From positions 8,988 to 72,987 of IMG/VR virus record IMGVR_UViG_3300035696_003004: a DNA stretch of 64,000 nt, one strand, 5' to 3'. This DNA is from a virus (Duplodnaviria > Caudoviricetes). Positions 24,042 through 48,311 of this stretch are shown in pieces (positions within the stretch are counted from its first letter, which is position 1; every line of letters begins with the position of its first letter). The notes beneath the pieces were generated by a model. It did not search any database. It was not told the origin of the DNA and saw only the letters and a list, made by a program, of their open reading frames with translations. Made by a program: the position numbers and the translations under genes.

Positions 24042-24120
24042 TTGAGCGACATGCCCCTCGCCTTTGGCGGGAACAAGCAATGGCTCAAGACCAGCAATGG
24101 CCTTGGGCCATTGTTGTTTT
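24042..24120 (+). promoter_or_regulatory. Conserved structured late leader/attenuator, copy A
   Basis: TTGAGCgaCATGC-hairpin-GAACAAGC-AATGGCTCAAG...CTTGGGCCATT plus T-rich tail; TTGACA at 24001. Confidence 0.8.
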
Positions 24121-24148
24121 TGCGCCAAATATCCCCAAGGAGGAAATT

Positions 24149-24262
24149 ATGGCATCTCGCAAACGTATCAGTTCGGCTAAATGTGCACAGGTCCGCAAGG
24201 GCACCGACCGCATTAAAAAGCTCGGCAAACGCGCCAGCAAAACCATTGCCGTAAAAGGTTAG
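24149..24262 (+). CDS. 37-aa Lys/Arg-rich microprotein
   Basis: AAGGAGG SD; MASRKRISSAKCAQVRKGTDRIKKLGKRASKTIAVKG. Confidence 0.7.
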   Translation: MASRKRISSAKCAQVRKGTDRIKKLGKRASKTIAVKG

Positions 24263-24285
24263 CGGCATAAGCCCCGGAGACCGAA

Positions 24286-24411
24286 ATGAAATCGACCAAG
24301 CGTGTAGGCAAAGTAAACCTTGTGCAACTTAAAAAAATGCGTCCACCTGTTCATGACGTTAGCAAGCGAATGGATAAAGCACCAGGCAAAACAGCTCGGG
24401 GAAAACTTTAA
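24286..24411 (+). CDS. 41-aa Lys/Arg-rich microprotein (not in ORF track)
   Basis: GGAG SD; MKSTKRVGKVNLVQLKKMRPPVHDVSKRMDKAPGKTARGKL. Confidence 0.6.
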   Translation: MKSTKRVGKVNLVQLKKMRPPVHDVSKRMDKAPGKTARGKL

Positions 24412-24439
24412 CTTACACGCTCCGGTATTCCGGAGCTAA

Positions 24440-26587
24440 ATGTATTCAGAACGCGTTATCTTGGCCAATTTGGACGAGTTTGCAGCTCGTGAAGGATGGA
24501 TGCCAGTCTATCATTCGCTCGATCAAGTAGAGGAATTTAAGAAGTATATCGACTCTATTGTAAAAGTTGAAAGCAATTCTCGATCTTCCTATGTAACTCT
24601 TATTCGTACCATCACCGAAAAACGGCGCAAGGAGATCTGGCATTGGATCGAAAACGAACAGGCATTGTGCGGACTCGATTCGAACTATTTCGAATCTCGC
24701 TACGCCTATGTGTGCGATGAAAAAGGGCAGATATTTAAATTTAAAAATCGGCTTTCCCAACAAATTTTCGATTCCGTAATTGCCGACTTCGATGAACGGC
24801 AAGTATCAATCGAGTTACTAATAATCAAGGCAAGACAAGTCGGAGTAACCACAAAAACAGCACTAAAGTTTATTCAAAAATTACTTTTTATTCCACATAC
24901 GCAAGCCGTAATGGCTTCTGTCCAATCGGATAAATCCGAGTTGATTGGTCGCATTTTGAATACCGTCTATAACCATTGTCCTTGGTGGCTGGTACCACGT
25001 TCGCTGCCCAAAGGTGCTTATGATAATGGCTCAATTCTTTCAATTCAGTCAGGTATGCAAGCGACCGGAATCGCTCAAGGATGGACTCCAACAGCCATAC
25101 ACGTCTCGGAGCTGGCTGATATACCGAAACCGAAAAAAGTGATCGAAGAGGGTTTACTTAGGGCCACTCACTCTTCCCGCAACTTGTTTTTGGTTTTTGA
25201 AGGAACTGGCGGCGGTAATACTGGCTGGCTGGCAGATACTTGGCGTGCATCCAAAGAAGATTGGCCTAAAGGCCGCGCACGGCTTTGCCCGATTTTTATT
25301 CCTTGGGTAATGGTACCAGATCTGTATCCGGAACCAGATTGGATTCGTAAATTCCCCGTTCCAGGCGGTTGGCATCCAAATGAAGCTACGCATAAGCATA
25401 TAACGCGCTGCGAACTTTATGTTCGTAATACTCCATATTTAACCAAAGTTGTTGGCAAAGATTGGAGAATGCCAGTCGAACAAAAGTGGTTTTGGGAATT
25501 TAACTACATGCAAGCATGCAAGAACCATACTCAAAAAATTTGGCTCGCGCAGATGGCTGCCGATGATCATGAAGCATTAACCGGTGTTTACGATAGTGTA
25601 TTTGAACCAGAAACAATCGACGAGATCGAAAAGTTTAATTACGTAATTCATACGGATGGAAGAACGCGACGGAAAAAATCGCTTCAGGCATATGCAATCA
25701 CAGGTGATTCGATCGATGATAGCTTTAATCCAGATGAATCGTTAATTGATTACGAAAAAATGCATATTCGTGTCTCGTGGCAATCCGATCGTGGACAAAA
25801 ATTTTTTTGGACGCTTGTTCCTTTAAAACCAATAGACGAAGAAGATGAAAACGACACGCTCGACAAACTTTTGGTATACGAAGAACCTCAATCGGGCTGC
25901 GACTATAGCTGCGGAATCGATACGGCCGATGGCCTAGGAAAAGAAGACGAAGACCGTACTTGCGTTTCAATGACGCGAAATCGGTTTGGTGATGAGTGCG
26001 ATTATCAGGTCTGCGAACTAACTTCAAATAGGATAAATTCTGCACAAATTGTAGGCTTTGCCGCATGCATGGCGGCTTGGTATGGCGAACATACAAAAAA
26101 TCCGCTTGGCGTCAAATTCTGTGTCGAACAGATCAGTCGGCCGGGGGATACCTGCCAGCATCAGCTAAAGTTAATGGGCTTTCATTATCATCACAAGCCG
26201 CGGCGCTACGACAGTAAGAAAATCAAAGATGATTCCGGGAAAAAGGAAGGTTGGTTTTCCAACGTATGGAGCGTACCTATCTTGATGACGCGTTTTACCG
26301 AAGCCGTGAATGGCGGTTGGTACCGGCCAGCGTCAAAATGGCTAATCGAGGAATTAAAAACACTAGAACGCCATGAAGCTGCAGGCCGGGCTTCGAAAAT
26401 GATCCATCGTAGTGGCTATCACGATGATCGTGTACGTGCCGCTGCGCAGTCTTACTTCACCATTCACGATATGGATGTGTTAGCAGATCGGGCGCAACGG
26501 CGTTATTCGCCCCCGACAGATAGCAATCCACCGCTTAGTCGATCAAAATGCTCGGTCAACAACGTATGTGTAGGAGGATGGGATTGA
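24440..26587 (+). CDS. terL: Terminase large subunit
   Basis: Walker A IIKARQVGVTT, Walker B-like HVSE, motif EGTG, nuclease GIDTADG and HDDRV; lies upstream of the portal. Confidence 0.9.
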   Translation: MYSERVILANLDEFAAREGWMPVYHSLDQVEEFKKYIDSIVKVESNSRSSYVTLIRTITEKRRKEIWHWIENEQALCGLDSNYFESRYAYVCDEKGQIFKFKNRLSQQIFDSVIADFDERQVSIELLIIKARQVGVTTKTALKFIQKLLFIPHTQAVMASVQSDKSELIGRILNTVYNHCPWWLVPRSLPKGAYDNGSILSIQSGMQATGIAQGWTPTAIHVSELADIPKPKKVIEEGLLRATHSSRNLFLVFEGTGGGNTGWLADTWRASKEDWPKGRARLCPIFIPWVMVPDLYPEPDWIRKFPVPGGWHPNEATHKHITRCELYVRNTPYLTKVVGKDWRMPVEQKWFWEFNYMQACKNHTQKIWLAQMAADDHEALTGVYDSVFEPETIDEIEKFNYVIHTDGRTRRKKSLQAYAITGDSIDDSFNPDESLIDYEKMHIRVSWQSDRGQKFFWTLVPLKPIDEEDENDTLDKLLVYEEPQSGCDYSCGIDTADGLGKEDEDRTCVSMTRNRFGDECDYQVCELTSNRINSAQIVGFAACMAAWYGEHTKNPLGVKFCVEQISRPGDTCQHQLKLMGFHYHHKPRRYDSKKIKDDSGKKEGWFSNVWSVPILMTRFTEAVNGGWYRPASKWLIEELKTLERHEAAGRASKMIHRSGYHDDRVRAAAQSYFTIHDMDVLADRAQRRYSPPTDSNPPLSRSKCSVNNVCVGGWD

Positions 26588-26594
26588 TTTAGCC

Positions 26595-26975
26595 ATGCTA
26601 AGCAGAAAAATTGTATTTTGGTTTAATCCGACAACAAAGGAATGGCGTATGGGATTACCGGAAATATATCCGGCACCCTATGGTTATGAAAAGGTTGTCT
26701 GTAATACGGCGCACGAGGCCGAATTGTGTTCGGAAAAAATGCGTTGGTGGGAATCAATGAACGGCGAAATTGAAAATCAAAGGCGCGAAATGGTTGAAGG
26801 TCCGATCAGGGATGCATTGCGTAAAGAAATTCTGTGGCTGGCGTCGAACGCTCGCAATGAAATCAACCGGGAGTTTCTGCTACGGCATTTAGCACTATAT
26901 GACAAGCGGGAAGATCGCACTAAAGAAAAACGTGTTAGCTATTTACACAGTGAAGCTTACGAAAAGGGTCGATAA
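26595..26975 (+). CDS. Hypothetical protein between TerL and portal
   Basis: 126-aa ORF after GGAGG. Confidence 0.65.
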   Translation: MLSRKIVFWFNPTTKEWRMGLPEIYPAPYGYEKVVCNTAHEAELCSEKMRWWESMNGEIENQRREMVEGPIRDALRKEILWLASNARNEINREFLLRHLALYDKREDRTKEKRVSYLHSEAYEKGR

Positions 26976-27044
26976 TTAACTTAATGTAGACGCGAAACTA
27001 AAATTTTATTACTATGACTTTACCGAGGAGGAAAGTGGTTATGA

Positions 27045-29096
27045 ATGGAGTTGGAAACAACCGAGTGGCAATGTCCAAAGTTTGAAACTTCCCCTAGCAT
27101 TCGTGCTGGATGGGTTGAAGAACAAATTCAAGAGGGCGAAGGCTTTCTGGAAGGCCAGACTTGCTACAAAAATTTAGGTGCCAATTTACGTGTATTTGAT
27201 GCTATTTTTCGTGATAAGTCGCGTTCGACCTTAATAACAAACGAACTTAAATACGATATACGTAAATTCTGCGAAACGCTTGCCGAAGTTCGTGAAATTG
27301 CCGCTTATGGATCGGATTTTCCCGCCTATAAAAAATTTGCTGAGATGCTTACCAAGGTTGCGCGATGTGTTTATCTAGAGTCTGATTTTCCCTTCCAGAT
27401 TTTAAAAGTTTTGCAATATGCCAGCGTAATGGGTATTGGTTACTTGTGGCCAAAAGTGCGAGCCGATGAATATGGCTATGGTGAACGCAAGATCGTTTTC
27501 GACGCACTTGGACTTTTAGATGTTGTTCCGGTTCAAATTCCGCGAACTAACGATGTTCAAGATGCTTATGCAAACACAGTTTATGACTACATGCCGATTG
27601 CGGAAGCGCACGGACGTTTTCCGCTTTTTCAGGGTCTTTTACAAACAGTTGGCCCTCGTAGTTATAAAACCAAAGTACAAGCACGACGCTTAGACTATGC
27701 TGAACGCTATCGTTACGGCGAACAAGGTCGAAGTTTTGGCAATTTGTATACAGAAATTCGTTACACATTTATTCGGGATCTTCGTATCAATAATACCGGC
27801 TATGAATTGCCAATGGGCGATCCTGGTACTAGCTGGTTCTACAAAGTACCGTTTGTTGGCCAAATGATATTTGGTGGCATGCGTAACGGAATGCCCTATA
27901 TGCGTCCGGCATCCATTGAGGACTGCCGCGTGTATCCCAATCTGCGGCTCATTATCACATCGGCTGGTCTCGATCGACCGATGTACGACGGACCGGCATT
28001 CGATTGGGATGGGAAAATGCCGATCATTCAGTACGTTGTTGATGATTGGGCGTGGGAGCCGATGGGTCGTTCGCTCGTTGGCGATGTAGGCTCAATCGAA
28101 ATTACAACGCGAAAAATTGAACGAAAAATCGATCAGGTGATTACTGCCACGCTAAATCCGCCGATTGGTTACGATCACACCGCAACGGGCGGTCCGAAAA
28201 TCGAACACTTCGACATTTTTGAAGAAGATGTGCGCTACGGTGTGGATGGCGAACCACGGAAAATTATGCAATCCATCCTTCCCGAAGAAGTTCGTGTTCA
28301 AGGAGAACATTTTAAGTTTTTAGAATACCTAAAAAATTGCAAACAGGCTCAACTTGGCTTGCAAGATCTTGGAAATCTGCAAAATATCAAAATGAATTTG
28401 GCCAATGATACCGCCGATAAAATGCTGGAATCAATTGGCCCGATTGCAAAGGGTATTGCGGCTAGGATCGAAAAAGCGAATAAAGCCATTGGCCAGCGTA
28501 TGAAGTTTCTTATTTTGCAATGGTTTAATGTGCCGAGAATTATGGAATATGTTGGCCCCGATCAAATTGATCGTGCGGTTTTTGATTTTAATCCTGACGA
28601 TTTAGTTCCGAGCCATATGCCCGATGAGCTGATTGGCGGTACTTTTCCGTCATCTCCATCACAGTACGATCGGTTAACGCGCGCGCGTTGGTTTACACGG
28701 CAAATTCGCTTAGTTTCCGTGCCAAGCACGCTGTTACGCATTACGCAAATGCAAGAGCAATTGAAGTATTTGCAGCTAAAACGTGGAAATGCTCCAATTT
28801 CTTGGGCAACAGTTATGAAAAAGCTTGATGTACCGAACTATGGCGACGTGAACGGTAATACAGAACGTGAAAAGTGGTTTAACGAAGAACTTGAAATGCA
28901 GAAACTTAAGATCATTGCCGCCGCAGCTGCCCAGCAATTGATGCAACAACTTGGCGTGCAACCGCCACAAGGTGCTGGTGGCGGGAAAGGCGGCGGCGGA
29001 AAAGGTGGTCGTCCACCGAGTGGAGCAAAAGCACCGCAGTTAAAACAAAAAGGAGCACAGGGTGGAACGCCTCGTTCAGTTGTCACTGAATCGTAG
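27045..29096 (+). CDS. Portal protein
   Basis: 683 aa directly after TerL, helical, Gln/Gly-rich C-terminal tail; assigned mainly by synteny. Confidence 0.75.
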   Translation: MELETTEWQCPKFETSPSIRAGWVEEQIQEGEGFLEGQTCYKNLGANLRVFDAIFRDKSRSTLITNELKYDIRKFCETLAEVREIAAYGSDFPAYKKFAEMLTKVARCVYLESDFPFQILKVLQYASVMGIGYLWPKVRADEYGYGERKIVFDALGLLDVVPVQIPRTNDVQDAYANTVYDYMPIAEAHGRFPLFQGLLQTVGPRSYKTKVQARRLDYAERYRYGEQGRSFGNLYTEIRYTFIRDLRINNTGYELPMGDPGTSWFYKVPFVGQMIFGGMRNGMPYMRPASIEDCRVYPNLRLIITSAGLDRPMYDGPAFDWDGKMPIIQYVVDDWAWEPMGRSLVGDVGSIEITTRKIERKIDQVITATLNPPIGYDHTATGGPKIEHFDIFEEDVRYGVDGEPRKIMQSILPEEVRVQGEHFKFLEYLKNCKQAQLGLQDLGNLQNIKMNLANDTADKMLESIGPIAKGIAARIEKANKAIGQRMKFLILQWFNVPRIMEYVGPDQIDRAVFDFNPDDLVPSHMPDELIGGTFPSSPSQYDRLTRARWFTRQIRLVSVPSTLLRITQMQEQLKYLQLKRGNAPISWATVMKKLDVPNYGDVNGNTEREKWFNEELEMQKLKIIAAAAAQQLMQQLGVQPPQGAGGGKGGGGKGGRPPSGAKAPQLKQKGAQGGTPRSVVTES

Positions 29097-29118
29097 TGAA
29101 TAAAAGGGAGAGAGATGT

Positions 29119-29358
29119 ATGCCTGTAAAGATCAAAGTACAAAAAGATTACTTTATGACCGAAGTAAGTGCTGATTTGCCAGCAGATGTTGGTGAACTTA
29201 ATGACGAACTTTTGGCAATTGGAACGACTGGAAAAATGGTTGTGCAGTATAACCACGGCAGTGTACAAGGCATTAACGTGGAGCAAAGAACAAAGATTCC
29301 GGACAATGTAGCGGATGAAATCAGAAAATTATTAGGCATTGGGACAAAAATTTCGTAA
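29119..29358 (+). CDS. Hypothetical protein
   Basis: GGGAG SD; 79 aa. Confidence 0.65.
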   Translation: MPVKIKVQKDYFMTEVSADLPADVGELNDELLAIGTTGKMVVQYNHGSVQGINVEQRTKIPDNVADEIRKLLGIGTKIS

Positions 29359-29365
29359 TTAGGAC

Positions 29366-29394
29366 TTGACATGAAACAAGATAAGTCCTATACA
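29366..29394 (+). promoter_or_regulatory. Promoter feeding leader copy B
   Basis: TTGACA-17 bp-TATACA, overlapped by inverted repeat TAGGACTT...AAGTCCTA (29360-29390). Confidence 0.55.
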
Positions 29395-29405
29395 TCGAAA
29401 AGATA

Positions 29406-29480
29406 TTGAGCGGCATGCCCCCCCTCCTTGGGGAAGAAGCAATGGCTCAGGACCGAAATGGCCTTGAGCCATTTCTATTT
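29406..29480 (+). promoter_or_regulatory. Conserved structured late leader/attenuator, copy B
   Basis: TTGAGCggCATGC-CCCC tcctt GGGG-AAGAAGC-AATGGCTCAGG...CTTGAGCCATT-TCTATTT. Confidence 0.85.
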
Positions 29481-29498
29481 CAACCCAAGGAGATAACC

Positions 29499-29609
29499 AT
29501 GGCGAAGAGACACAAAATCGGAATGGTTAAGGCAAGCCACTTAAAGAAGGGCAGAGGCCGCAAGCGTGGTCGCAAACGTGGTGGCAAAAAGAGCGCCATT
29601 AAGGCTTAA
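29499..29609 (+). CDS. 36-aa Lys/Arg-rich microprotein
   Basis: AAGGAG SD; MAKRHKIGMVKASHLKKGRGRKRGRKRGGKKSAIKA. Confidence 0.75.
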   Translation: MAKRHKIGMVKASHLKKGRGRKRGRKRGGKKSAIKA

Positions 29610-29622
29610 GTAAAGGAACCCA

Positions 29623-29937
29623 ATGGCGAGTACACCTACAGCAATGCCCGATCAACAAACGCAAGGCGCCGCTCCTCCAACAGGGGGCGGCGCGCCCCCG
29701 CAGAATGCGCCTGTTCAAACTCCACCTCCTGAACAAGCAGCGGCCCCGTCACAAGGACCAACTAGCGGATTGCAACAATTGCTTTTCCAATGGTCACAAG
29801 TAGTGAAACAGATTGCTGCATCGGATCCCCGGCTAGCACCTGGAGCCGAAAAGATTTCTCAGGGTATTCAAGACATGCAGACGGCGATTATTTCGCCACC
29901 GCAACCGACGCCGATGGGTCAGCAACCACAATACTAA
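29623..29937 (+). CDS. Pro/Gln-rich hypothetical protein
   Basis: AAGG SD; 104 aa. Confidence 0.7.
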   Translation: MASTPTAMPDQQTQGAAPPTGGGAPPQNAPVQTPPPEQAAAPSQGPTSGLQQLLFQWSQVVKQIAASDPRLAPGAEKISQGIQDMQTAIISPPQPTPMGQQPQY

Positions 29938-29961
29938 AAAATTGCGGGAGAAGAAAAGGTT

Positions 29962-30990
29962 ATGCCTACAGTTTCAGAGTTACTAAAGCAATCCGGTCTT
30001 ACCGATGAACAGATCGCGGCACTTGATCCAAAGATGGTCAGTTCATTTAGTGGCATTTTGACGTCCGCCGACAGTGAACGCCAAGCCGCACAGCAAGCAG
30101 CAGCTAAAGCTGAAGCGGAACGTAAAGCCGCAGCCGAAGATGCGGCAAAGGCCGAACAAGAACATCAAGCAGCTATGAAAGCCAAAGAAGAAGCGGAATT
30201 GGCTGATCGTAGTTGGCGCCAGTTTTACGATGAAAGCGTTACGCCGGCACTAAATACATGGGGAACTGAAAAGGCCAATCTTGAAGCGCAATTAGCTTTT
30301 TACCGTGCGCAAAATGATGCTGCCCGCGCTGGTGGTTTTGTTCCGCAAGATGCGCCAGGTTATGTGCCACAAGCTTTAGATCCATCCAATGCTTCGGCCG
30401 CACAACCGCGTGATCCCAAAGGTCGTTATGTGGCAGGTGCCGCAACTGGAACGCCAGGCTCGCCTGTTTTTACGGTGGATGCAATTGAAGAACGTCTTGG
30501 CAATGGCATCAGTAATATCGGCTGGGCGATGCAGGAATATGCCAGATTGAACGAAGGCAAGATTTTACCTGATCCTTTTGATTCGCTAGCAAAAGAAGCA
30601 ACAAATATGCGCCTCCCGTTTCGCGATTATGTCGCGCGGAAATACGACTTTGCTGGCAAACAGGCGGAAATGCAGCAAAAAATGCAGCAAGAACATGATG
30701 CTCAAGTCGCTGCTAGCGCTGTGAAGCCATTGCAAGAACAGTTGGCGGTAAAAGAAAAAGAATGGCAGGAAAAGTTATCAGCCAAAGATAAGGAATGGGC
30801 CGAAAAGATTGGCTCTAACCCGGACGTTCGTATTGCGCAACCATCGCGGTTTGCTGATGTTGCGCGCGCCGTAAAGGCAAATGAACGTCCAGATCCGTTG
30901 AATTTGAATGAACAACAACGTCGACTAGCTACTTCGCAAGCGATCCGCCATGAAATTGTAGAGCAAAACATGGAACAAGCGGCTGCGTAA
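29962..30990 (+). CDS. Capsid scaffolding protein
   Basis: Ala/Glu/Gln-rich coiled coil immediately upstream of the capsid gene. Confidence 0.65.
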   Translation: MPTVSELLKQSGLTDEQIAALDPKMVSSFSGILTSADSERQAAQQAAAKAEAERKAAAEDAAKAEQEHQAAMKAKEEAELADRSWRQFYDESVTPALNTWGTEKANLEAQLAFYRAQNDAARAGGFVPQDAPGYVPQALDPSNASAAQPRDPKGRYVAGAATGTPGSPVFTVDAIEERLGNGISNIGWAMQEYARLNEGKILPDPFDSLAKEATNMRLPFRDYVARKYDFAGKQAEMQQKMQQEHDAQVAASAVKPLQEQLAVKEKEWQEKLSAKDKEWAEKIGSNPDVRIAQPSRFADVARAVKANERPDPLNLNEQQRRLATSQAIRHEIVEQNMEQAAA

Positions 30991-31016
30991 AGTAACGACG
31001 CTGAATTAAGTTTTTC

Positions 31017-31088
31017 GAGACGCATGCCCCCCTTCGGGGAATAAGCAATGGCTCAAAACCATTAATGGTTTTGGGCCTTTTTTATTTT
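31017..31088 (+). promoter_or_regulatory. Conserved structured late leader/attenuator, copy C
   Basis: GAGAcgCATGC-CCCC cttc GGGG-AATAAGC-AATGGCTCAAAACCAttaaTGGTTTTGGGCC-TTTTTTATTTT. Confidence 0.8.
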
Positions 31089-31192
31089 GGAAGAAAAACG
31101 GTGATTGTAAGCAAAAATTTCAAGATCCGACTTGGATGGATTGTCGTCGGAGAAACACCCAGCAATGGAGACACTTTCGAAAGGAGCAGCAA

Positions 31193-31228
31193 ATGGCAAA
31201 AGTTAAGAAAGTTCTAGCTATTGCCTAG
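31193..31228 (+). CDS. 11-aa basic mini-ORF ahead of the capsid gene
   Basis: AAAGGAG SD; MAKVKKVLAIA*. Confidence 0.4.
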   Translation: MAKVKKVLAIA

Positions 31229-31239
31229 CTGACCGTATT

Positions 31240-32472
31240 ATGCCAACTGATCCTCTCTACAACGAAATAGACGCTTCTAACTTAGAAAGTGTCAGAAAGA
31301 ACGTGGTATATAACAATCTGTTTGTCGATACCCCGTTCCAGGCTAAGTTGCGCCGTGCTGGTGTTTGGGATGAGTTCCTTGGTGGCGCCGGCATGATGGA
31401 AGGCATCTTGTACGGGCGCACGCAGGGAGCTGCGGTGAACCCGGGCCAGACCGTCACCGTAACCCGCCAGCAAATCAACACCGGCATCAAGTTCCTGCCC
31501 AAGGCTTATGCCGCGTGGTATCCGCTGGATGACTGGGAAATGGATGATGGTTCCGGTACAGGCGGCGTCATCAATTCCGGTCCATCGAAGATTGTGGACG
31601 AATACCAACTCTACATGGAAGCGATGGTAATGACTATCAACACCATGCAAGAGATGGATTCGTTCCGCCATGGGCAACCGTCCTCAACAACCGTTCAGGA
31701 TAACCGTATTAAGACGATCAACGGCCTGGACGAAGCGCTGAATAACGGTATTGATAACTCGGTGTATGGCAATATCTACACCAATTACGGCGGACAAGCG
31801 CGCAACGGGAATATTGGAACTGCGCTCAATGCTACGCCGCTATTTCTGGGTACATCGGCCGGTGCTCCTGGGCTGATCGATTTTGCCTCGTTGATGCAGC
31901 TCTGGTCGCAGTGCAAAGTTACCGGCGGCAATCCGACGCTGGGTATTACGAATGTGTTTGGTTTTAAGGCTATCGCCATCGCGCTCGATGCGCAGCGGCG
32001 TGACGTTTCTAATACCAAACACGACATCAAGTGGGATGGTATGAACTTTAATGGCGTCGACATTTATGCCGATCCGCTAGCACCATCCGCCCAAGCACAA
32101 AACTATCTTGAATTGGCACCGGCCAACGGCGCAGCAGGAAACACGAATCTTGCTGACGGCGTTGGATCGAGCACGGCAACGGTTACCTTTACTACGCCGC
32201 AATTTACAAAAAATGGTGCGCCTGTATCTGTATCGCCGACCGGTTCTGGTTTGCCGTCAAATACGACAATTCAGCCTTCCGAAGTCCTTTACTTCCTGGA
32301 GCCGGAAAGCTTCAAGATCCGCCCGACAAACAAAAAGGGCTGGAACTTTGGATTGCGCCGCGCACCAATGCCAAACAACGTAAGCATTGATGCTTTGTTT
32401 ATGCGGCTTGGCACAAATCTCTACAACACTCAGCCTCGTCACAATGGCTACGCATTTGGCTTTACTGCCTGA
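31240..32472 (+). CDS. Major capsid protein
   Basis: 410 aa after the scaffold; size, synteny and Gly/Asn-rich HK97-like composition. Confidence 0.75.
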   Translation: MPTDPLYNEIDASNLESVRKNVVYNNLFVDTPFQAKLRRAGVWDEFLGGAGMMEGILYGRTQGAAVNPGQTVTVTRQQINTGIKFLPKAYAAWYPLDDWEMDDGSGTGGVINSGPSKIVDEYQLYMEAMVMTINTMQEMDSFRHGQPSSTTVQDNRIKTINGLDEALNNGIDNSVYGNIYTNYGGQARNGNIGTALNATPLFLGTSAGAPGLIDFASLMQLWSQCKVTGGNPTLGITNVFGFKAIAIALDAQRRDVSNTKHDIKWDGMNFNGVDIYADPLAPSAQAQNYLELAPANGAAGNTNLADGVGSSTATVTFTTPQFTKNGAPVSVSPTGSGLPSNTTIQPSEVLYFLEPESFKIRPTNKKGWNFGLRRAPMPNNVSIDALFMRLGTNLYNTQPRHNGYAFGFTA

Positions 32473-32487
32473 AATTAGGAGACGATC

Positions 32488-33321: not shown

Positions 33322-33331
33322 CAGCTCGTTA

Positions 33332-33364: not shown

Positions 33365-33386
33365 AGCAGCTTGAGTAGGAGCGGTT

Positions 33387-33722: not shown

Positions 33723-33808
33723 GCAGGAATAAAGCGTCTTTCTCCCGGAGACACTTACCCGGCTCTTGTGGGGAAATCCCATAAGAGCCGTTTTGTTAGG
33801 AGCGCAAC

Positions 33809-34822: not shown

Positions 34823-34824
34823 CT

Positions 34825-39320: not shown

Positions 39321-39354
39321 TCAACAAAACTACTAAAGCATTAAAAGGAGAAAA

Positions 39355-39723: not shown

Positions 39724-39775
39724 CAATATAAACATTAATTGTTAGCGTAAAAATTTAGTAATTTGGTAGCAAAAA

Positions 39776-40033: not shown

Positions 40034-40037
40034 AACT

Positions 40038-40553: not shown

Positions 40554-40571
40554 GAGTTCAAAGGAGAATGT

Positions 40572-40904: not shown

Positions 40905-40910
40905 GGGCTT

Positions 40911-41105
40911 ATGCCCGCTCGCGAAATTATGAAAAAGTTCCGCAAAGGTCAGTTGCATTCAGGAAAGGGCGGAAAGATCGTACGAAATAAAAAACAAGCT
41001 AAAGCGATTCTTTTGTCGTATCTGCGTAAGGAAGGTCGAATTGGGCCTCGTAAACCGCTAGCAAAAAAGAGTCGGCATAGAAAAAGGATTGCCACCAAGA
41101 AATAA
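40911..41105 (+). CDS. Lys/Arg-rich small protein (DUF6496-like)
   Basis: IMKKFRKGQLHSGKGGKIVRNKKQAKAILLS pattern. Confidence 0.7.
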   Translation: MPAREIMKKFRKGQLHSGKGGKIVRNKKQAKAILLSYLRKEGRIGPRKPLAKKSRHRKRIATKK

Positions 41106-41131
41106 GTGGTGGATGATTGTATAGATATCGC

Positions 41132-41205
41132 GAGCGGCATGCCCCCCCTCCTTGGGGAAGAAGCAATGGCTCAAGACCGAAATGGCCTTGGGCCATTTTC
41201 ATTTT
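41132..41205 (+). promoter_or_regulatory. Conserved structured late leader/attenuator, copy D
   Basis: GAGCggCATGC-CCCC tcctt GGGG-AAGAAGC-AATGGCTCAAG...CTTGGGCCATT-TTCATTTT. Confidence 0.85.
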
Positions 41206-41225
41206 GGCCGAAAGGAGGAAAATTG

Positions 41226-41486
41226 GTGGCAAAACTAAGTTACAAAAAACGGCAAAAACTGCCGAGCAAAGCGTTTGCTATTAAAGGGCGGCGCTACCCG
41301 ATTAATGATCCTGCGCATGCAAAAAACGCGTTAGCACGAGTGTCACAACACGGATCTCCGCAAGAAAAAGCTGAAGTACGACGTAAGGTGCATGCCAAGT
41401 TTCCTGGAATTGCCGTTAGCGGCTTGAAAAAGGGAAAGACCAAAGCTAAAAAGAAAGGCCGCAAGCGCGTGGCTGGAAAGGGATGA
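41226..41486 (+). CDS. Lys/Arg-rich protein (DUF6582-like core)
   Basis: AAAGGAGG SD; KL..K.R.KLP..AFA...RRYPI.D.AHA.NALARV.Q. Confidence 0.75.
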   Translation: MAKLSYKKRQKLPSKAFAIKGRRYPINDPAHAKNALARVSQHGSPQEKAEVRRKVHAKFPGIAVSGLKKGKTKAKKKGRKRVAGKG

Positions 41487-41489
41487 GCG

Positions 41490-41744
41490 ATGGCAAAGCG
41501 TACAAGGGCTGCTGCATCTGGATTGGAACGGTTAAACATAGGCGTGGAGCGCGCTGAGAATGGCGCAATAGTGCGTGTGAGCGGTGAGGGCAAAGGAAAA
41601 AACGCTTCCTATACCAGCCGCACTTTTATTGCTCCAAACGGCCGTGCCGCGATGAGAATTGCCACTACGCATATTCAAGGCATTGGCAAAAAGATAAAGT
41701 CCGGTAAAGCAAAAGCGACAAAAGGCCGCGCGCGCAAAAGCTGA
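41490..41744 (+). CDS. Lys/Arg-rich small protein
   Basis: 84 aa, strongly basic termini. Confidence 0.65.
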   Translation: MAKRTRAAASGLERLNIGVERAENGAIVRVSGEGKGKNASYTSRTFIAPNGRAAMRIATTHIQGIGKKIKSGKAKATKGRARKS

Positions 41745-41753
41745 AGGTTTGTA

Positions 41754-43076
41754 ATGGCTGGATATTCCTGGCTTACGTATTCAACGGCGCGCCAACAGCT
41801 TGCAGCTCGTTTGGCGGACAGTGGAAATGTGTTTTGGACAGATGCAGAATGTGGACTTTACATTATCGACGCTTTGCGAATGTTTAATGTGCTTACGTTT
41901 ACTTGGAAGCAAGATTATGTTTTTTATGCTACAAACCTTTGGAATACGTTGGGAACTTTGACAAATTCGCCGCGGATACGAACAGTTACAGATACCAACT
42001 GCTACACCTTGATGGAATACATGCTGTTAGAACCGCCGACAGGGGGTACGTGGACTGGAACCTCGCAATTTACAATCAATCAATTTTCGACGGCGTTGCA
42101 GCATCGTAGGGATGAAATGCTGCAAATTTCCAATTGCAACCAATTGTTGCTGAGTTCGATTGCGCTGACACCAAATACCAGACGTACGTACTTGCCGGAC
42201 ACAATAATCGATGTTGCGCGCGTTCGGTATTTGCCTGTAACAGGGTCGCCGACGACACTTTATCGCGATGATACAGTTGCGCAAGAATTTTATGAAGCGC
42301 CACTTTACGAACTAGGCTCAGGAACGCCGCAGACCTATATGTTGACTTCAGAGCCGCCGCTTACTTGGGATGTCGATATTACTCCAAATCTGCCGGGCAA
42401 ATACGAAGCAATTGTGCTTGAGTCTGGTGCTGCATTTATTCCGCCCACAGCGACGCTTTTAAATATTCCAAACGACTTTTCATGGGTGCTGATTTGGGGT
42501 GCAATTGCAGATTTGTTGGGTATGGAAAGTGAGGCTACTGATCGGCAGCGAGCGTCGTATTGCTTGCGCAGATACCAGGATGGTTTGAATTTGTTGCTGA
42601 AAACACCTTGGATTATGTTGGCAAAGGTAAATGGAGCAGCAACGGATATACCGTCGATTGCGGCCATGGATCGGTATCAGCCGGAGTGGGATTCAACTCC
42701 CGCAACTTTTGGGCCCTGCGTGGTAGCAGGCGGAATCGATATGATCGCGGCTCCCCAAGGCTCAAGTATCGGAGTGACGGTGCTGGCCAATGCGCCGGTG
42801 CCGTCCTCTGATACCGATTACGTGCAAGTTTCACGATCAGATTGGGATATTGTTTTGGATTTGGCTCAAGTTTTTGCAGCATTTAAGCAAGGAGGAGCTG
42901 AGTTTCAATCGGCATTGGAATTGGAATCGAGAGCAATTCAGGCATGCGCTGTTGAAAATACACGTTTAAAAAGTATGGGCAGCTTTAGCGACATTTTGGC
43001 ACAACGCGGACAAGCACAGGATCGCAATCAGGAAAGATTTAATAATGCCAACCAAAAAACTAGCGGGACAAAATAG
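41754..43076 (+). CDS. Tail adaptor/tubular-like protein
   Basis: 440 aa preceding the large tail protein; synteny. Confidence 0.5.
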   Translation: MAGYSWLTYSTARQQLAARLADSGNVFWTDAECGLYIIDALRMFNVLTFTWKQDYVFYATNLWNTLGTLTNSPRIRTVTDTNCYTLMEYMLLEPPTGGTWTGTSQFTINQFSTALQHRRDEMLQISNCNQLLLSSIALTPNTRRTYLPDTIIDVARVRYLPVTGSPTTLYRDDTVAQEFYEAPLYELGSGTPQTYMLTSEPPLTWDVDITPNLPGKYEAIVLESGAAFIPPTATLLNIPNDFSWVLIWGAIADLLGMESEATDRQRASYCLRRYQDGLNLLLKTPWIMLAKVNGAATDIPSIAAMDRYQPEWDSTPATFGPCVVAGGIDMIAAPQGSSIGVTVLANAPVPSSDTDYVQVSRSDWDIVLDLAQVFAAFKQGGAEFQSALELESRAIQACAVENTRLKSMGSFSDILAQRGQAQDRNQERFNNANQKTSGTK

Positions 43077-43078
43077 AT

Positions 43079-46000
43079 ATGGCAAATCCGCAAAATTACG
43101 GTCGGGCAAACGATGGTATTCGGTTTAAGCCAGGTGGCATAAATACTGTCAAGGCTGTTGACCAAATTACACAGCCAGGGGAATACTCCTATCTCCAAAA
43201 TGTTCGCGGCTATCTACAGAATCGATTGATTGGCCGGACAACGCAATCGAGCGCTCTCGATACGTTGAGTGCCGTACCGCACACAATGCGTCGACTTAAC
43301 GATTCGACGCCTAGTGGCCCAACATCAGGTTATGCTCGAATCATTGGCGCGGCTGGATTAATGTATATAAATTCGACGAAAGTAGCGTCTGGATTAAGTG
43401 GCAATCCTGTATCCATGGTACCATTTCGGCCGAATGCATCCGTACAGCCTTGGATGTATATAGGCGATTCATCTACAGACGTTACAATCACAAGTTCGTC
43501 ATTTGTTTGCGATGGAATGCTTAAAATTCGGTCTGATGGCTTGACATATAAAACTGGAATTGCTGAACCACAAGTTGCGCCGGTAGTGAGCACAGGAAGT
43601 TATACGACAAATGGCACCGATGTATTACCGGCGACGGCGATGCCGTGGACCAACCGCGGAGGCACCAACGCCAACTGGAATTTTGGAGGCATTGAAACCG
43701 CAGCAAACACAAATCCCGTAGTAATCAATACGCCAATTGAAGGGTCAACGGTTACCTTAAGTGTAACGGGGACGGCAACGCTGATTAACGGTGTAAGTAA
43801 TGCGACACCAAGTACCTCCAGCTCAAGTTGGGTTACATCTGTTTATCCCGGGCACTATTTGAAATCGGGAGCTAGCAGTTGTTCAGTAGTTGTAGCTGCA
43901 TTTACAGACATAAATGGAAATGTAATTGCTGAAGCGTCTTCTTCGACAACGGGATACATCTACAACGTGGGTGCAGGGGTCGTTTTAACTGTTCCTGTCA
44001 ATGCGGTGCAGCTGCATGTAGGCATTAACTCGCAAGGCGGCACTTTTCATTCCAACAGCGGTAATTTTACTCTTACTTGGACTGTAGTAACACCGGCTAC
44101 GGCAACGGTTGTTTCGCTTTACAACACTGTTACTGCGTATTATTGGGGCGACTCTCCACACTCTGGATCGGTATCTTTGTACATTTGGAAAAATCCGGAA
44201 GATTCCGGATCGGGTACTTCGCGTACAAGTAGCACAGCAGCAGGATCATCAACTAATAACTCGCTAATTTTCGATTCAACGCCAAATACGTCATCTAATC
44301 CTGTTTTATGGACAACGCTCAATACAGATGGAACTGTGGAAGGAACAATAGATTTATTTGCAACCGCATTGGAATCTCAAGGGTTTCAAGACTTTAACGT
44401 TTGTATAGTGGGAAGTTTGTATATTCCAGTAGCTGGAACTTACGCATTCCAAATGGTCAATAAAGATCAAGTCATGTTTGGAATTGGCGGTGGCGCAACG
44501 ACTTCCTTGGGAACGGTTAAAGGACCAAGCGCTCAAACCGAAACGGTGATAAGTGCATTGCCCTTAATGGCAGTTAGCAGTCCAAATGGCGAAGGTGGTG
44601 CAGTTACTACATCATTTAACGTTACTTTTAGCGAACCCGGTACTTATAGTTGCGAAGCTGATTGGGATTATTGGTATCACAATGGACGAACAATGGTTAT
44701 CACTTGCGCGCCGACGCCAGGAGCAGCTGTTGCAACGATTCCACCGCTCTCTACAAATGTGCGAACCAATGTTTCGTATGAATATGTTTATCGGTCTTCA
44801 AAGACAGGCGCAGTATCGAACCCTTCGCCAGCCTCCACTATTCAAGATACGCCGGTACTGGCAAACACGGTCACATCTTTATATTCGTCTGATCCGCAGG
44901 TCGATAAGGTTGACTATTACAGAATGGATGCTACTTTAACAAGTTATACGTACATTGCTACCGGGCCAAATGACAATTTGGGCGTGACAAGCGGTTATAA
45001 CACACCGATTCAAGATACTGTTACAGATTCAGCGGCGGAAGATAATAGCACGATCAGTACGGATAATTTTGAACCATTTCCATCGATTGATACGCCCAAA
45101 AGCGGAGTAATTAATATTTCTGGCGGAACAATTACATGGGTAAGTGGTGACACGTTCAACACAAGTTGGTTGCCAGGAACAATTATTTTGATCGGATCTC
45201 CTACGCAATTAGGATATACATTATATTCGCGCCCGACTTCAACAACAACAATGTATCTGCCTGATGCACCTGACGGAACTAATCTTAATTACAACATTGC
45301 CGAACCGATATTGGCAGCCCGGCCGCTGCCATCGATGTGGGGACCGACCGATAACACTGCTTATATGTTTGCTTGCAATGATCCGTACCGGCCAGGGACG
45401 CTTTATTTTACAAAAGGAAACAATCCGGACTCGGCACCGGATACGAATCAAATCGAAGTCACGTCGCCTTCCGAGCCGTTAATGAACGGATGCATTGTAA
45501 ACGGCGTAGGAATGGTGTTTTCAACGGAACGTGCATGGATTATCGATCCGACCTATACCTCTGCGCTGGCCACAGTTAGCGGAGTGCAGGGAAGCGCTTT
45601 TAATTTGATTGAGTCAATCACCAATCGCGGCCTTTACATACGCAGTTGCCTTTGCACGGAAGCGGGAATGAATGTTTTTTTCCGCGCCAAAGACGGAATT
45701 TACGTTTCGCCAAAGGGTTCGGGGAGCCAATCGATTACCGATTCTCAGCTCTACAATCTTTTTCCTCATGAAGGCTCAACGCCGGCAGCAGTCACGATTG
45801 CCAGCTATACAATCTATCCGCCCAATGACTTATTACCAAATAAACAAACTTTGTCGTTTGCCAATGGATACTTGTATTACGACTATGAAGACACCAGTGG
45901 AAATCCGCGAACGCTGGTTTATGATGTCGTAGCCAAGGGCTGGATTGTCGATGTTTATGGAACTACGGTTACCTGTCATGCGCTTGAAGAAGGAGTTGAA

Positions 46001-47041
46001 GTCAACGATACGCTGGTAGGATGCACGGACAGTACTGTGCGCGATTTGGAAAGTGGAGGAACAGAGACGGCAACTTCCGTAGTGGCGACTGGCGCGGTAA
46101 ACACCGGAGATGCGCGAGCATTTAAAAGACTAGGCGATGTATTTCTGAAAGCGTTTGTGGCAACCAGTAATCCGGTTACGGTCTCGCTATATACAGATCG
46201 CTACCAAACAGCACTGACCGGCTTTAGCCCGACAAGTTTAACCGGAAACGGAACGATTCAGCCCTACATCATCGATTTTACTTCTGGCTATGCGAAAGAC
46301 GTGATTGATGTTGAAGCGGTTTTAAGTTGGCCAACAAACTCTACGACTTATATCGATCTTTGGCAACCGACATTTATTGCTCTACCGGAAGCGACACAAG
46401 ATAGGCCCACGGATTGGGGCGATTTGGGAAGTGTGGGATTGAATTTTGTGCAGGGATTGATTTTGGAGGCCGACACTTTCAATGCCGCAAAAGCAATTTC
46501 TGTCGAGGATGAGCTGGGAAATCTTCATGTTCCCAATGAATCGCCCTTTACTCTAAACGGTCAGCAAAAAATTCCATTGACATTTACGCCGCCATTTACG
46601 AGCCATATTGGAAGAGTGGTGTCTACGGATGGAGTTCGGTGGAAATTGTGGGGCATCAACTGGGTCAGTTTGCCGTATCCAGAATCGACGGTAGAATGGC
46701 AAACAGAAATGCTTTCGCATGGAATGAAGGGTTGGTTTCATGTGCGAATGATGAATCTTCCAATGATTTCAACAACGGCAGTTACACTAACGTTGGTATT
46801 TGACGCTTGGCCAACAATCACCTTAGCGGTACCAAGTACAAGTGGATCGTTTATAAAGCAAAAAGTTCAAATTCCAGCAAATAAGACCAAGTTGTTGAGC
46901 TATCGATTGAGTTCGACAGCTCCGTTTTATTTGTTTAAAAATGATGTAGAGGTTTGGATTGGGCAGTGGGGCCGAACGGAGGCATATACGGTTTTAAAGC
47001 CATTTGGTGGATCAGCAGGAAACGCAGGAGCGCAAGTCTAA
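43079..47041 (+). CDS. Large tail nozzle/stabilisation-type protein with inserted beta-rich (PA14-like) segment
   Basis: 1320 aa; beta-propeller-like C-terminal half (LYFTKGNNPD, VFFRAKDGIY, LVYDV..GW..D) as in podovirus nozzles. Confidence 0.6.
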   Translation: MANPQNYGRANDGIRFKPGGINTVKAVDQITQPGEYSYLQNVRGYLQNRLIGRTTQSSALDTLSAVPHTMRRLNDSTPSGPTSGYARIIGAAGLMYINSTKVASGLSGNPVSMVPFRPNASVQPWMYIGDSSTDVTITSSSFVCDGMLKIRSDGLTYKTGIAEPQVAPVVSTGSYTTNGTDVLPATAMPWTNRGGTNANWNFGGIETAANTNPVVINTPIEGSTVTLSVTGTATLINGVSNATPSTSSSSWVTSVYPGHYLKSGASSCSVVVAAFTDINGNVIAEASSSTTGYIYNVGAGVVLTVPVNAVQLHVGINSQGGTFHSNSGNFTLTWTVVTPATATVVSLYNTVTAYYWGDSPHSGSVSLYIWKNPEDSGSGTSRTSSTAAGSSTNNSLIFDSTPNTSSNPVLWTTLNTDGTVEGTIDLFATALESQGFQDFNVCIVGSLYIPVAGTYAFQMVNKDQVMFGIGGGATTSLGTVKGPSAQTETVISALPLMAVSSPNGEGGAVTTSFNVTFSEPGTYSCEADWDYWYHNGRTMVITCAPTPGAAVATIPPLSTNVRTNVSYEYVYRSSKTGAVSNPSPASTIQDTPVLANTVTSLYSSDPQVDKVDYYRMDATLTSYTYIATGPNDNLGVTSGYNTPIQDTVTDSAAEDNSTISTDNFEPFPSIDTPKSGVINISGGTITWVSGDTFNTSWLPGTIILIGSPTQLGYTLYSRPTSTTTMYLPDAPDGTNLNYNIAEPILAARPLPSMWGPTDNTAYMFACNDPYRPGTLYFTKGNNPDSAPDTNQIEVTSPSEPLMNGCIVNGVGMVFSTERAWIIDPTYTSALATVSGVQGSAFNLIESITNRGLYIRSCLCTEAGMNVFFRAKDGIYVSPKGSGSQSITDSQLYNLFPHEGSTPAAVTIASYTIYPPNDLLPNKQTLSFANGYLYYDYEDTSGNPRTLVYDVVAKGWIVDVYGTTVTCHALEEGVEVNDTLVGCTDSTVRDLESGGTETATSVVATGAVNTGDARAFKRLGDVFLKAFVATSNPVTVSLYTDRYQTALTGFSPTSLTGNGTIQPYIIDFTSGYAKDVIDVEAVLSWPTNSTTYIDLWQPTFIALPEATQDRPTDWGDLGSVGLNFVQGLILEADTFNAAKAISVEDELGNLHVPNESPFTLNGQQKIPLTFTPPFTSHIGRVVSTDGVRWKLWGINWVSLPYPESTVEWQTEMLSHGMKGWFHVRMMNLPMISTTAVTLTLVFDAWPTITLAVPSTSGSFIKQKVQIPANKTKLLSYRLSSTAPFYLFKNDVEVWIGQWGRTEAYTVLKPFGGSAGNAGAQV

Positions 47042-47169
47042 TGCCAAAAATTACGATTACTGAACGTCGCTGCGATCGATGTGGGAAAATCGGCACAGTA
47101 CCGTGGCCGAACAAAAAATGTCCTGATTGTACGAAATGGGCCAAGCAAAATCCTACAAAGGCAAAGTAG
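47041..47169 (+). CDS. 42-aa Zn-finger microprotein
   Basis: CDRC...CPDC. Confidence 0.45.
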   Translation: MPKITITERRCDRCGKIGTVPWPNKKCPDCTKWAKQNPTKAK

Positions 47170-47177
47170 GCATTTAA

Positions 47178-48152
47178 ATGGCTGTTTACATTGCACCTAA
47201 AAAGTGGCCAGCATTAGACGACAACCCGTCGTCCGCAGAAGTCGCTTTAAATTTGCGAAGAGTTTTTAATACATTGAATGACCATGACCAAGCGATTAAC
47301 ACAATGTATGCAAACGGGACTACTGTTACCACCGAAACCGTCACAAAACTTATTACTGAGGCGGCTACTTCCTCTTCGTCTTCGCTTAATGTGGTCACAT
47401 CTTTTAATGGCAGCAAAGGCGATATTACATTTTTTAATTATTTGGGGACTGTTGACAATCAAGTCGGAGTTACAAGTTATACAACGCAAAGTTCCGATGA
47501 TGGCGCAATGATTCTAATCGATGATTCATCGGCTGTGGCTATTACTTTAAATTTTAACGTCTCGGCACCATGGTTTACAACTATCGTCAATTTGGGGACT
47601 GGTACAGCTACTCTTACGCCGTCAAGTGGTACGGTTAATGGTGCGGCTTCGGTAACACTTTATGGCGGAAGCTTTTCTATCGTTTACTTCGATAGTACAA
47701 ATTTTTGGGCTAGTTTGCTACCCATTGCTTCGACTAGTCAATTTGGATTAGTGAAGCCAGATAATTCCACAATTACTATATCAAATGGGGTTATATCATC
47801 TGTTTCTTCTTCGTGGTTAGGAGGTACATTATCGATAAGCAATATTACAATTGGTTCCGGTGCAGGAACCGGTGCTACTTATAGCATTGTGGGTACTGAT
47901 GGCAATCATACAGTTGCAATTGAAACAGGTACGTCACCAGCAGCTTCCTCTATGCTATTTACAATTACGTTCACAGCATCGAGAGGCCATACGACTTATC
48001 CAGTGATTTGGCAGGCGGGACTAAGTGGATATACATCGCTCGCTCAATCTGTATGGATTAATTCAAGTTCAAGTACATCATATACTATAAACTCTGGATC
48101 AACTGCATTAACGGCAGGTGTTGAATACTATTGGAATGTTGTTTGCCCGTAA
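47178..48152 (+). CDS. Short tail fibre-like protein
   Basis: VTSFNG, GTATLTP..GT.NG, FGLVKPDNSTITI fibre motifs. Confidence 0.65.
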   Translation: MAVYIAPKKWPALDDNPSSAEVALNLRRVFNTLNDHDQAINTMYANGTTVTTETVTKLITEAATSSSSSLNVVTSFNGSKGDITFFNYLGTVDNQVGVTSYTTQSSDDGAMILIDDSSAVAITLNFNVSAPWFTTIVNLGTGTATLTPSSGTVNGAASVTLYGGSFSIVYFDSTNFWASLLPIASTSQFGLVKPDNSTITISNGVISSVSSSWLGGTLSISNITIGSGAGTGATYSIVGTDGNHTVAIETGTSPAASSMLFTITFTASRGHTTYPVIWQAGLSGYTSLAQSVWINSSSSTSYTINSGSTALTAGVEYYWNVVCP

Positions 48153-48238
48153 GTATAATTGCATAAATAAGGTCGAAATAGGGCGAATTAGATATGTTGT
48201 TATAAATATAAACTAGGATTATTCTGTTGATACATTAG

Positions 48239-48311
48239 TGAGCAACATGCCTCCCCAACGGGGAACAAGCAATGGCTCAAAGTCCGAAATGGCTTTGAGC
48301 CATTTCTGTTT
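48239..48311 (+). promoter_or_regulatory. Conserved structured late leader/attenuator, copy E
   Basis: TGAGCaaCATGC-CCCC aac GGGG-AACAAGC-AATGGCTCAAAG...CTTTGAGCCATT-TCTGTTTT. Confidence 0.8.

Follow-up and report, generated by a model that had tools for sequence, protein, structure and literature searches.

The 64,000 nucleotides (nt) of viral DNA analysed here, called the window below, correspond to positions 8,988 to 72,987 of the IMG/VR record IMGVR_UViG_3300035696_003004 (Duplodnaviria; Caudoviricetes) and carry five copies of an element of roughly 95 bases whose RNA forms three covarying helices. These helices share strands, so that only two alternative folds exist, and four of the five copies stand shortly downstream of promoter-like sequences. 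We are inclined, with some reservation, to see in it a cis-acting leader RNA, specific to phages, that heads every late transcription unit and serves there as a bistable ON switch.

Five copies of the element in the window

Reading of the sequence places the GAG with which copies 1 to 5 begin at 24044, 29408, 31017, 41132 and 48240, on the + strand throughout, the strand of all the leader features given below. The exact pattern CATGCC-hairpin-AANAAGCAATGGCTCA has five matches on the + strand of the window as against none in 100 shuffles of it, and a covariance model run with its filters off scores the five copies at 78-91 bits while the rest of the + strand stays at or below 12 bits. The same unfiltered scan finds no sixth copy in the window. 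The five leaders of the first-pass annotation are hence present where it had put them.

From 5' to 3', GAG-NNN-CATGCC and a C/G hairpin are followed by GGGAANAAGCAATGGCTCA, another hairpin region and a tail rich in T. The consensus given earlier had to be amended in two places. GAG and CATGC are indeed found in the 5' arm, but the spacing GAGC-NN is wrong, the true form being GAG-NNN-CATGC, with GAGAC in copy 3 and in about half of the relatives; similarly, the AANAA junction is correct for the window while the wider family reads AA-N-(A/C)-A-GC.

Three helices, two folds and their covariation

The structure was derived from alignments of first 46 and then 125 instances (76 distinct). The first helix, P1, pairs GAG:CUC, CAU:AUG and GC:GC, encloses an inner hairpin h of variable sequence and length, and closes a sensor domain of 40-46 nt. 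The second, helix A, is made of (AAU)GGCUCARG..CC with GG..CYUGRGCC(AUU). The third, helix B, pairs a segment located in the loop of A (e.g. CAGAAAUGGCC) with the tail (GGCCAUUUCUG); it has 9-11 bp, a loop of 3-5 nt, an energy of -10 to -18 kcal/mol and a run of 3-5 U directly on its 3' side. Since the core strand is common to P1 and A, and the 3' strand of A is common to A and B, only two global folds can exist, namely Fold I (P1, h and B) and Fold II (h and A). RNAalifold recovers P1, h and B from the model-based alignment, and the sensor alone folds into P1 and h in most copies. The earlier proposal of mutually exclusive terminator and antiterminator folds stands as regards exclusion, the core strand being also the 5' arm of the covarying helix A, but there are three helices instead of two. 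Likewise, the terminator hairpin with a variable loop is real as helix A, although this loop doubles as the upstream arm of helix B, which the CCATTTCTG-type tail completes on the 3' side.

In the model-based alignment 99.5% of the P1 cells are paired, and three of the five inner pairs of this helix display compensatory changes (one of C-G to U-A, four of A-U to G-C and two of U-A to C-G), which bears out the suggested pairing of the 5' GAG..CATGC with the GC-A-ATG-G-CTC core; one relative (L227) retains the pairing by moving the bulged A. Helix B displays the strongest covariation of the three, with compensatory changes at eight of its ten pairs. For helix A, counted from sequence anchors, 71 of 73 are paired, and the variation at two pairs is AT/GC/GT in one and GC/AT/GT/CG in the other. 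As controls, none of 500 shuffles reaches the values observed for P1 and B, and pairing drops to 25-40% when the partner strand is slid. Given that G-U pairs are kept and that the strand bias is strict, selection appears from these alignments to act on the RNA and not on the DNA. With strand-sharing exclusive helices under selection and one sensor combined with several platforms, the element has the make-up of an attenuator or riboswitch platform.

Other structural features were considered as well. The RNA has no pair of tandem hexaloop hairpins on inspection of the alignment. A kink-turn, a T-box-like UGGN/NCCA pairing with phage tRNAs and an Hfq A-R-N motif were each dropped on inspection, as was a CRISPR-repeat mimic, the inner hairpin sequence not being conserved. 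Finally, an extension of helix A by pairing of the N of AANAA with the tail was not consistent when counted by eye.

Promoters, expression platforms and gene context

Copies 1, 2, 4 and 5 lie 13-16 nt 3' of sigma-70-like promoters. Under a strict rule, at least 34 of 75 distinct copies are found 13-16 nt downstream of TTGACA-N16-18-TAnnnT, and several more can be added by eye. By contrast with these, about 15 copies, including copy 3, have no promoter and stand behind the stop codon of the gene that precedes the capsid gene.

Three kinds of expression platform follow the sensor: a terminator region with helix B, a terminator without B (the copy-3 type), and, in three records, two distinct copies without any terminator, in which the sensor runs straight into a ribosome-binding site (RBS) and the Shine-Dalgarno (SD) sequence and AUG are masked. 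Searching five genomes with a sensor-only model gave no further platform type. In the capsid-gene type there is no good B, and UUUUUUAUUUU comes directly after A, which an independent terminator scanner flags. In the window, a terminator consensus scan picks helix A of copy 3 (31050-31077 followed by TTTTTTATTT) and helix B of copy 1 (24092-24116 followed by TTTTTGCG), two hairpins that would therefore count as intrinsic terminators by consensus, while the tails of copies 2, 4 and 5 are weaker than those of copies 1 and 3. The terminator-less sensors (L232, at G002:21890-21955, and L010:8412-8491, the latter also in G016) are each joined to the RBS of a gene for a basic protein of ~64 amino acids (aa) with FRKHKLHSGKGGKIVR, and a full copy follows ~200 nt downstream. 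A strong stand-alone terminator-like hairpin of 14 bp, CGGCTCTTGTGGGG..CCCATAAGAGCCG followed by TTTTG, is located at 33760-33790 inside the structural region and has no sensor.

Copy 1 has its promoter-like site at 24001-24029 (TTGACA, a spacer of 16-17 nt and TTAAAT/TAAATG), which ends ~15 nt before the GAG and has the same layout in relatives. Its sensor (24044-24086) consists of P1, h (CCCCTCGCC/GGCGGG) and an AACAA junction, and folds alone into P1 and h at -14.5 kcal/mol. Helix A (24079-24112; AATGGCTCAAGACC with GGCCTTGGGCCATT) has its 5' arm in common with P1 and its 3' arm in common with B, and helix B (24092-24121) reads CAGCAATGGCC-TTG-GGCCATTGTTG and then TTTTT. The first gene behind it (24149-24262, with AAGGAGG upstream) encodes a Lys/Arg-rich protein of 37 aa, and the large terminase gene (24440-26587) is next. 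In copy 2 the promoter-like site TTGACA-17-TATACA (29366-29394) is followed by the sensor at 29408-29448, in which CTCCTTGGG (29424-29432), a part of the inner hairpin, is complementary to the RBS region at 29484-29492. Helix A (29441-29473) and the overlapping helix B (29455-29475), with the tail TATTTCAACC, come next, and then the RBS region CCCAAGGAG and a first gene, with its ATG at 29499, for a Lys/Arg-rich protein of 36 aa (29484-29609 together).

Copy 3 is of the promoter-less kind. Its sensor (31017-31054, GAGACGCATGC type) starts 26 nt after the stop codon (30988-30990) of the open reading frame (ORF) 29962-30990, and its platform (31050-31088) is helix A, GGCTCAAAACCAT-TA-ATGGTTTTGGGCC and then TTTTTTATTTT, with no B, matching the consensus of a canonical intrinsic terminator ahead of the major capsid gene (31240-32472). 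Copy 4 is preceded by TTGCCA-17-GATGAT (41089-41117) and its sensor (41132-41172) equals that of copy 2 exactly from GAG to CTC; helix A (41165-41197), helix B (41179-41199) and the tail CATTTTGG extend to 41207, and the first gene, DUF6582-like with a basic N-terminus, starts at 41223 or 41226. In copy 5, TTGTTA-17-TATTCT (48197-48225) precedes the sensor (48240-48278), helix A (48271-48304), helix B (48286-48306) and the tail TGTTTTGCG, which reaches 48315, with the ATG of the first gene at 48328.

In the complete genomes described below the copies cluster in the structural region. The names first given to the units fit to a different degree: those of the large terminase and the major capsid protein have family support, which is weak, but 'scaffold', 'tail' and 'ejection' are names taken from gene position. 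Furthermore, the idea that the element gates late genes was too narrow if only virion genes are meant, since in two relatives (G005 and G013) the single copy precedes a PD-(D/E)XK nuclease gene.

Folding energetics and masking of the ribosome-binding site

The sensors of the five copies fold alone with -10 to -14.5 kcal/mol. At the point where the 3' arm of A emerges, the state with A is lower by 5-8 kcal/mol and the barrier on the direct path from P1 to A is 3.7-7.6 kcal/mol. With A the more stable and the barrier low, an unheld sensor should, according to these calculations, be displaced by A before synthesis has advanced by more than a few nucleotides. When the tail has emerged in copies 1, 2, 4 and 5, the energy difference between Fold I and Fold II is 2-4 kcal/mol and the barriers between them amount to 14-22 kcal/mol, while copy 3, which has no B, shows no such kinetic trap. 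This difference suggests that B would behave as a latch committing the RNA to the sensor fold.

When the RBS is included in the calculation, Fold II gains a further 5-16 kcal/mol as the C/U-rich region of h pairs with the SD, and in copy-2-type leaders it becomes a nearly continuous duplex of 25-35 bp. The complementarity to the SD amounts to -18 to -22 kcal/mol in the copy-2 class, is strong in the terminator-less copies and is absent in the capsid class. In the terminator-less copies the lowest fold (-26 to -33 kcal/mol) pairs the 5' arm of P1 and the C-run with the SD and AUG, and it is only in the sensor fold (-14 kcal/mol) that both are freed. Many copies probably exert translation control in addition.

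Proposed switch and its polarity

In the mechanism that we propose, a sigma-70-type promoter or, at copy 3, read-through from the upstream gene would yield the leader RNA, the first 40-46 nt of which would fold as a sensor with P1 closing the C/G hairpin, the fixed bulges and the AA-N-A/C-A junction. If nothing held the sensor, A would displace P1 within a few nucleotides and transcription would stop at A and its U-rich tract; in any RNA that read through, A would in many copies be extended to a long rod in which the C/U-rich inner hairpin pairs with the SD. If a trans-acting factor held the sensor, A would be blocked and its 3' strand captured by B, which would lock the sensor fold and leave the RBS free. 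We infer that termination takes place at A, that the folded sensor is the ON state, that B locks it and that a factor stabilising the sensor exists. On the polarity the three platform types agree: P1 competes with an unambiguous terminator in copy-3-type leaders, Fold II masks the RBS, and the terminator-less copies free SD and AUG in the sensor fold only.

Several observations weigh against this scheme. Helix B, with its stem of 9-11 bp and the U-run behind it, itself resembles an intrinsic terminator, and in copy 1 it is B and not A that the scanner flags. For this reason the sensor fold might also terminate, or the polarity might be reversed, and in copies 1, 2, 4 and 5 the sequence is ambiguous as to whether A or B is the terminating hairpin. 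As for P1, its GAG:CUC and GC:GC pairs are invariant and so carry no covariation signal, the compensatory changes come from one, four and two distinct rows, and the alignment used (A4) was fitted to P1, h and B, that is to Fold I, and hence favours that structure. The masking of the SD is class-specific, own partners averaging -13.75 kcal/mol versus -11.56 kcal/mol for cross partners with only 16 of 68 in the best 10%. Finally, it is by position alone that the candidate factors presented below are singled out.

A switch of the opposite sign, in the style of PyrR or an OFF riboswitch, is the alternative that survives best, and we regard it as unlikely. Here the sensor would be an anti-antiterminator, A the antiterminator and B with its U-run the terminator, so that a held sensor would shut the late operons, e.g. 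in lysogeny or early infection. Beyond the scanner result for copy 1, this would suit the compactness of B, its abutting on the U-run and its covariation, as well as the fact that in copies 1, 2, 4 and 5 the stem of A ends 4-7 nt short of the U-run; moreover, the quick formation of A without a factor would make read-through the default. However, A is a canonical terminator in the copy-3-type leaders that have no B, and one and the same factor would then activate the capsid gene but shut off the leader next to the promoter of that operon. The burial of the RBS by Fold II in many copies would leave the read-through RNA poorly translated, and the terminator-less copies, with SD and AUG free in the sensor fold only, do not fit either. 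In addition, the base of the B stem is A/U-rich with only 3-5 U after it and then G/C, and strong constitutive promoters with read-through as the default suit late genes poorly.

Distribution of the element

The covariance model gave 125 matches (76 different sequences), spread over 24 related viral records and a single Acidobacteriota metagenome-assembled genome (MAG), the survey of the family being partial. Each record has 1-10 copies, always on one strand, which is the coding strand, and the core is found in 53 stretches of IMG/VR contigs. Two complete genomes of ~133 kb (G001 and G014, the latter with terminal repeats) contain eight copies each, inside a region of 33-37 kb where the genes of the terminase and the capsid are also found. 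G+C is 47% in the window versus 59-60% in these two relatives, and the capsid protein is still ~90% identical and the leader core the same. A further record of 26.9 kb (G005; L248 and L249) is classed in IMG/VR as complete with terminal repeats, yet it is collinear with the non-structural half of the relatives of 55-134 kb, which makes a whole genome of that large kind improbable; the notion of an independent small genome sharing the factor was given up for the same collinearity.

Outside these records, the core pattern has 25 matches in 596 Gb of prokaryotic genomes, which is about the chance level, the single genuine carrier being the Acidobacteriota MAG (L193) with two copies 2 kb apart. 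The covariance model has no match in 150 other Acidobacteriota genomes sampled, and megablast against a collection of phage GenBank entries returned none. A loose pattern, CATGCC..GGGAANAAGC, run over viral contigs gave matches that are nearly all due to chance, with one new genuine copy (L127). The view that the motif is possibly undescribed is upheld by Rfam 15, in which tRNAs alone pass the gathering thresholds for the whole window, while permissive scans of copy 1 and eight divergent copies brought nothing near threshold (best, ctRNA_p42d with 27 bits versus a threshold of 50, on the terminator hairpin only), and by a literature keyword search that returned no description of the element. 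The proteins of the phage are mostly without annotation in family searches, and protein homologues derive from peat and Sphagnum data. Given the single MAG carrier, the absence from the 150 genomes of the phylum and the origin of the protein homologues, the element is probably restricted to phages of a little-known group, probably Acidobacteriota phages. The same absence argues mildly against a common metabolite as ligand. Elsewhere in the window, a serine recombinase/DNA invertase gene is located at 8186-8815 on the - strand, and a tRNA cluster, with three tRNAs by Rfam, near the right end (62880-63771).

Candidate trans-acting factors

Most likely, the phage itself would encode the factor that stabilises the sensor, as a protein of a family not yet recognised. 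A protein of 34-40 aa with 32-49% Lys and Arg is the product of the first gene behind 26 of 55 copies and belongs to one of two paralogous families that end in ...KRASKTIAVKG and ...GKKSAIKA. Copy-4-type leaders precede a related DUF6582-like protein, and in the window the gene at 41223-41486 joins a basic N-terminus to a DUF6582-like part. A protein atlas and homologue searches returned only unnamed clusters and DUF6582 for these small basic proteins. BglG and PyrR genes hold the position right behind the leader in their own operons, and the small basic proteins are positional candidates for the factor.

A second positional candidate is offered by the syntenic block at 20990-23393, immediately upstream of the first leader and also found in both complete genomes. 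It consists of an ORF and the genes of two proteins, one of 149 aa (22007-22456) and one of 279 aa. The conserved 279-aa helical protein (22554-23393, + strand), just upstream of copy 1, has no family assignment; it has more than 379 unnamed homologues, and its AlphaFold model displays a confident all-helical core at residues ~70-215. It has no Pfam or PHROG match, a sequence search of the PDB returned only a designed repeat protein, and Foldseek against the PDB and viral structures together with VIA-align gave nothing significant, the best Z being 4.6 with weak overlaps of the helix-turn-helix kind. Between this gene and copy 1, at 23390-23812, a protein is encoded with HAD_SAK_2, the HAD domain known from the 'Swiss Army Knife' proteins of RNA repair; it is present at only six of the loci bearing the motif.

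Searches for known regulator domains were performed on four phage genomes (G000, G001, G014 and G003). Neither CAT_RBD (PF03123), nor NusG-like PF02357, nor PF06530, the sole Q family searched, was found in them while the control genomes responded. The ANTAR search (PF03861) had no match in the phage genomes, nor in the control genomes.

Comparison with known regulatory systems

By analogy, the mechanism appears closest to attenuation of the ribonucleic antiterminator (RAT)/BglG type and of the riboswitch type, because the 3' strand of the sensor is the 5' strand of the terminator and because there is one sensor per terminator. As in the RAT of BglG, SacY and LicT, a short conserved hairpin with internal loops overlaps by its 3' strand the 5' strand of an intrinsic terminator, and there is a separate copy for each regulated terminator. 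The regulator gene of the bgl operon comes first behind a leader terminator, and the tiny basic proteins are in this same position. However, none of the four phage genomes encodes a CAT_RBD domain, sensor and RAT consensus are presumably unrelated in sequence and shape, and the phage element has the extra locking hairpin B and a coupled SD masking, in a late regulon instead of sugar operons.

With riboswitches and three-helix attenuators (pyr/PyrR, trp) the element has in common a sensor closed by P1, variable platforms (a terminator in most copies, sequestration of SD and AUG in a few), exclusive helices that share strands and, on the computed energies, a kinetic decision taken during transcription. 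Metabolite riboswitch classes normally sit on cellular genes, whereas the phage element was not found in the 150 host-phylum genomes, its sensor has just 40-46 nt and one genome can hold as many as ten copies ahead of late phage genes. The late region of lambda, with PR', tR' and Q, is comparable in that strong constitutive host-type promoters are followed within ~100 nt by a terminator to be overcome for late expression, and in that the first late promoter has a conserved block of genes shortly before it. In contrast, Q binds DNA at one promoter and acts processively, whereas the element is an RNA structure downstream of the promoter in 5-10 copies, one of them within an operon, and no PF06530 gene was found in the four genomes.

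Structured RNAs of mobile elements that let transcription pass terminators are known, namely put of phage HK022, EAR of the Bacillus eps operon, conAn2 of pLS20 and canT of Tn916 (PMC11658703). It is distinctly unlikely that the sensor is a put/EAR/canT-like or nut-like RNA which, folded alone or with a protein, makes RNA polymerase resistant to terminators, the adjacent hairpins being the terminators overridden. A near-invariant sequence across hosts of 47-60% GC would fit recognition by a conserved machine, and two copy types keep the sensor and have no terminator. Yet processive antiterminator RNAs act from one or two sites over long distances (PMC11658703), while here each terminator has one copy, with as many as ten per record. 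Furthermore, the known RNAs act once, over many kilobases, and have no terminator overlap, but the phage element overlaps its own terminator, is reiterated and has no Rfam match; the 3' strand of the sensor forms part of the terminator hairpin and covaries with it, which is the hallmark of local attenuation. A put-like RNA that needs no factor would read through constitutively, leaving the terminators pointless, and no gene of the NusG/LoaP family or of the one Q family searched was found in the four genomes. The one-copy-per-terminator layout and the strand sharing thus argue against the processive class.

A role in RNA processing or stability, with the Fold II rod as a ribonuclease III site comparable to the intergenic R sites of T7, or a trans-acting small RNA of ~95 nt, seems more doubtful still. 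The long duplex of copy-2-type leaders, the presence of several copies per genome, and strong promoters with terminator-like hairpins within 100 nt, which would give short RNAs, are in keeping with it. However, it leaves unexplained why P1 and B should be under selection as competitors of A, a promoter is lacking from the copy-3 type, and terminator-less copies are fused directly to an RBS; a complementary RNA or target sought elsewhere in the window showed complementarity at chance level only. Processing could nonetheless be an added layer on top of the switch. That the conservation reflects a coding start or leader peptide (ATG GCT CA), or else a site in the DNA, for instance a late promoter recognised by a phage factor, is hardly credible: the core does have GGGGAA with an ATG 7 nt on, a very high sequence identity and a frame shared with the next gene in copies 1, 2 and 4, but that frame is kept in only about one third of 47 instances, shifting with the length of h and giving 'peptides' of 4-180 aa, GCT shows no synonymous variation, and compensatory and G-U changes preserve the three helices on one strand.

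Significance

Attenuation as such is already known; what is new here is the RNA family itself, its reiteration as a phage late regulon, the latch hairpin and the coupling to SD masking. As a speculative extension, to which we give limited credence, the element would be the first riboswitch-like regulon timing phage late genes, with one small sensor repeated at the heads of 5-10 operons and at a single site inside an operon. Its reader would be either the tiny Lys/Arg-rich peptide of the first gene, giving a self-amplifying late burst by positive feedback of the arginine-rich-motif antiterminator kind, or a small molecule reporting the state of the infected cell, with B as an irreversible latch coupling read-through to ribosome access.

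The timing of late genes in tailed phages is known to rest on proteins acting at promoters or on RNA polymerase, such as Q, N, late sigma factors and activators, and a structured RNA switch repeated at each late unit would be a different solution to this problem. To our knowledge, the phages and the gene regulation of Acidobacteriota are almost unstudied. The 76 distinct sequences suffice for rigorous covariation work, and a compact three-helix bistable design of ~95 nt with a built-in latch and a dual output on transcription and translation would be useful to RNA folding studies and synthetic biology. The identity of the ligand would add either a new family of RNA-binding proteins or peptides, or the first phage-only riboswitch class.

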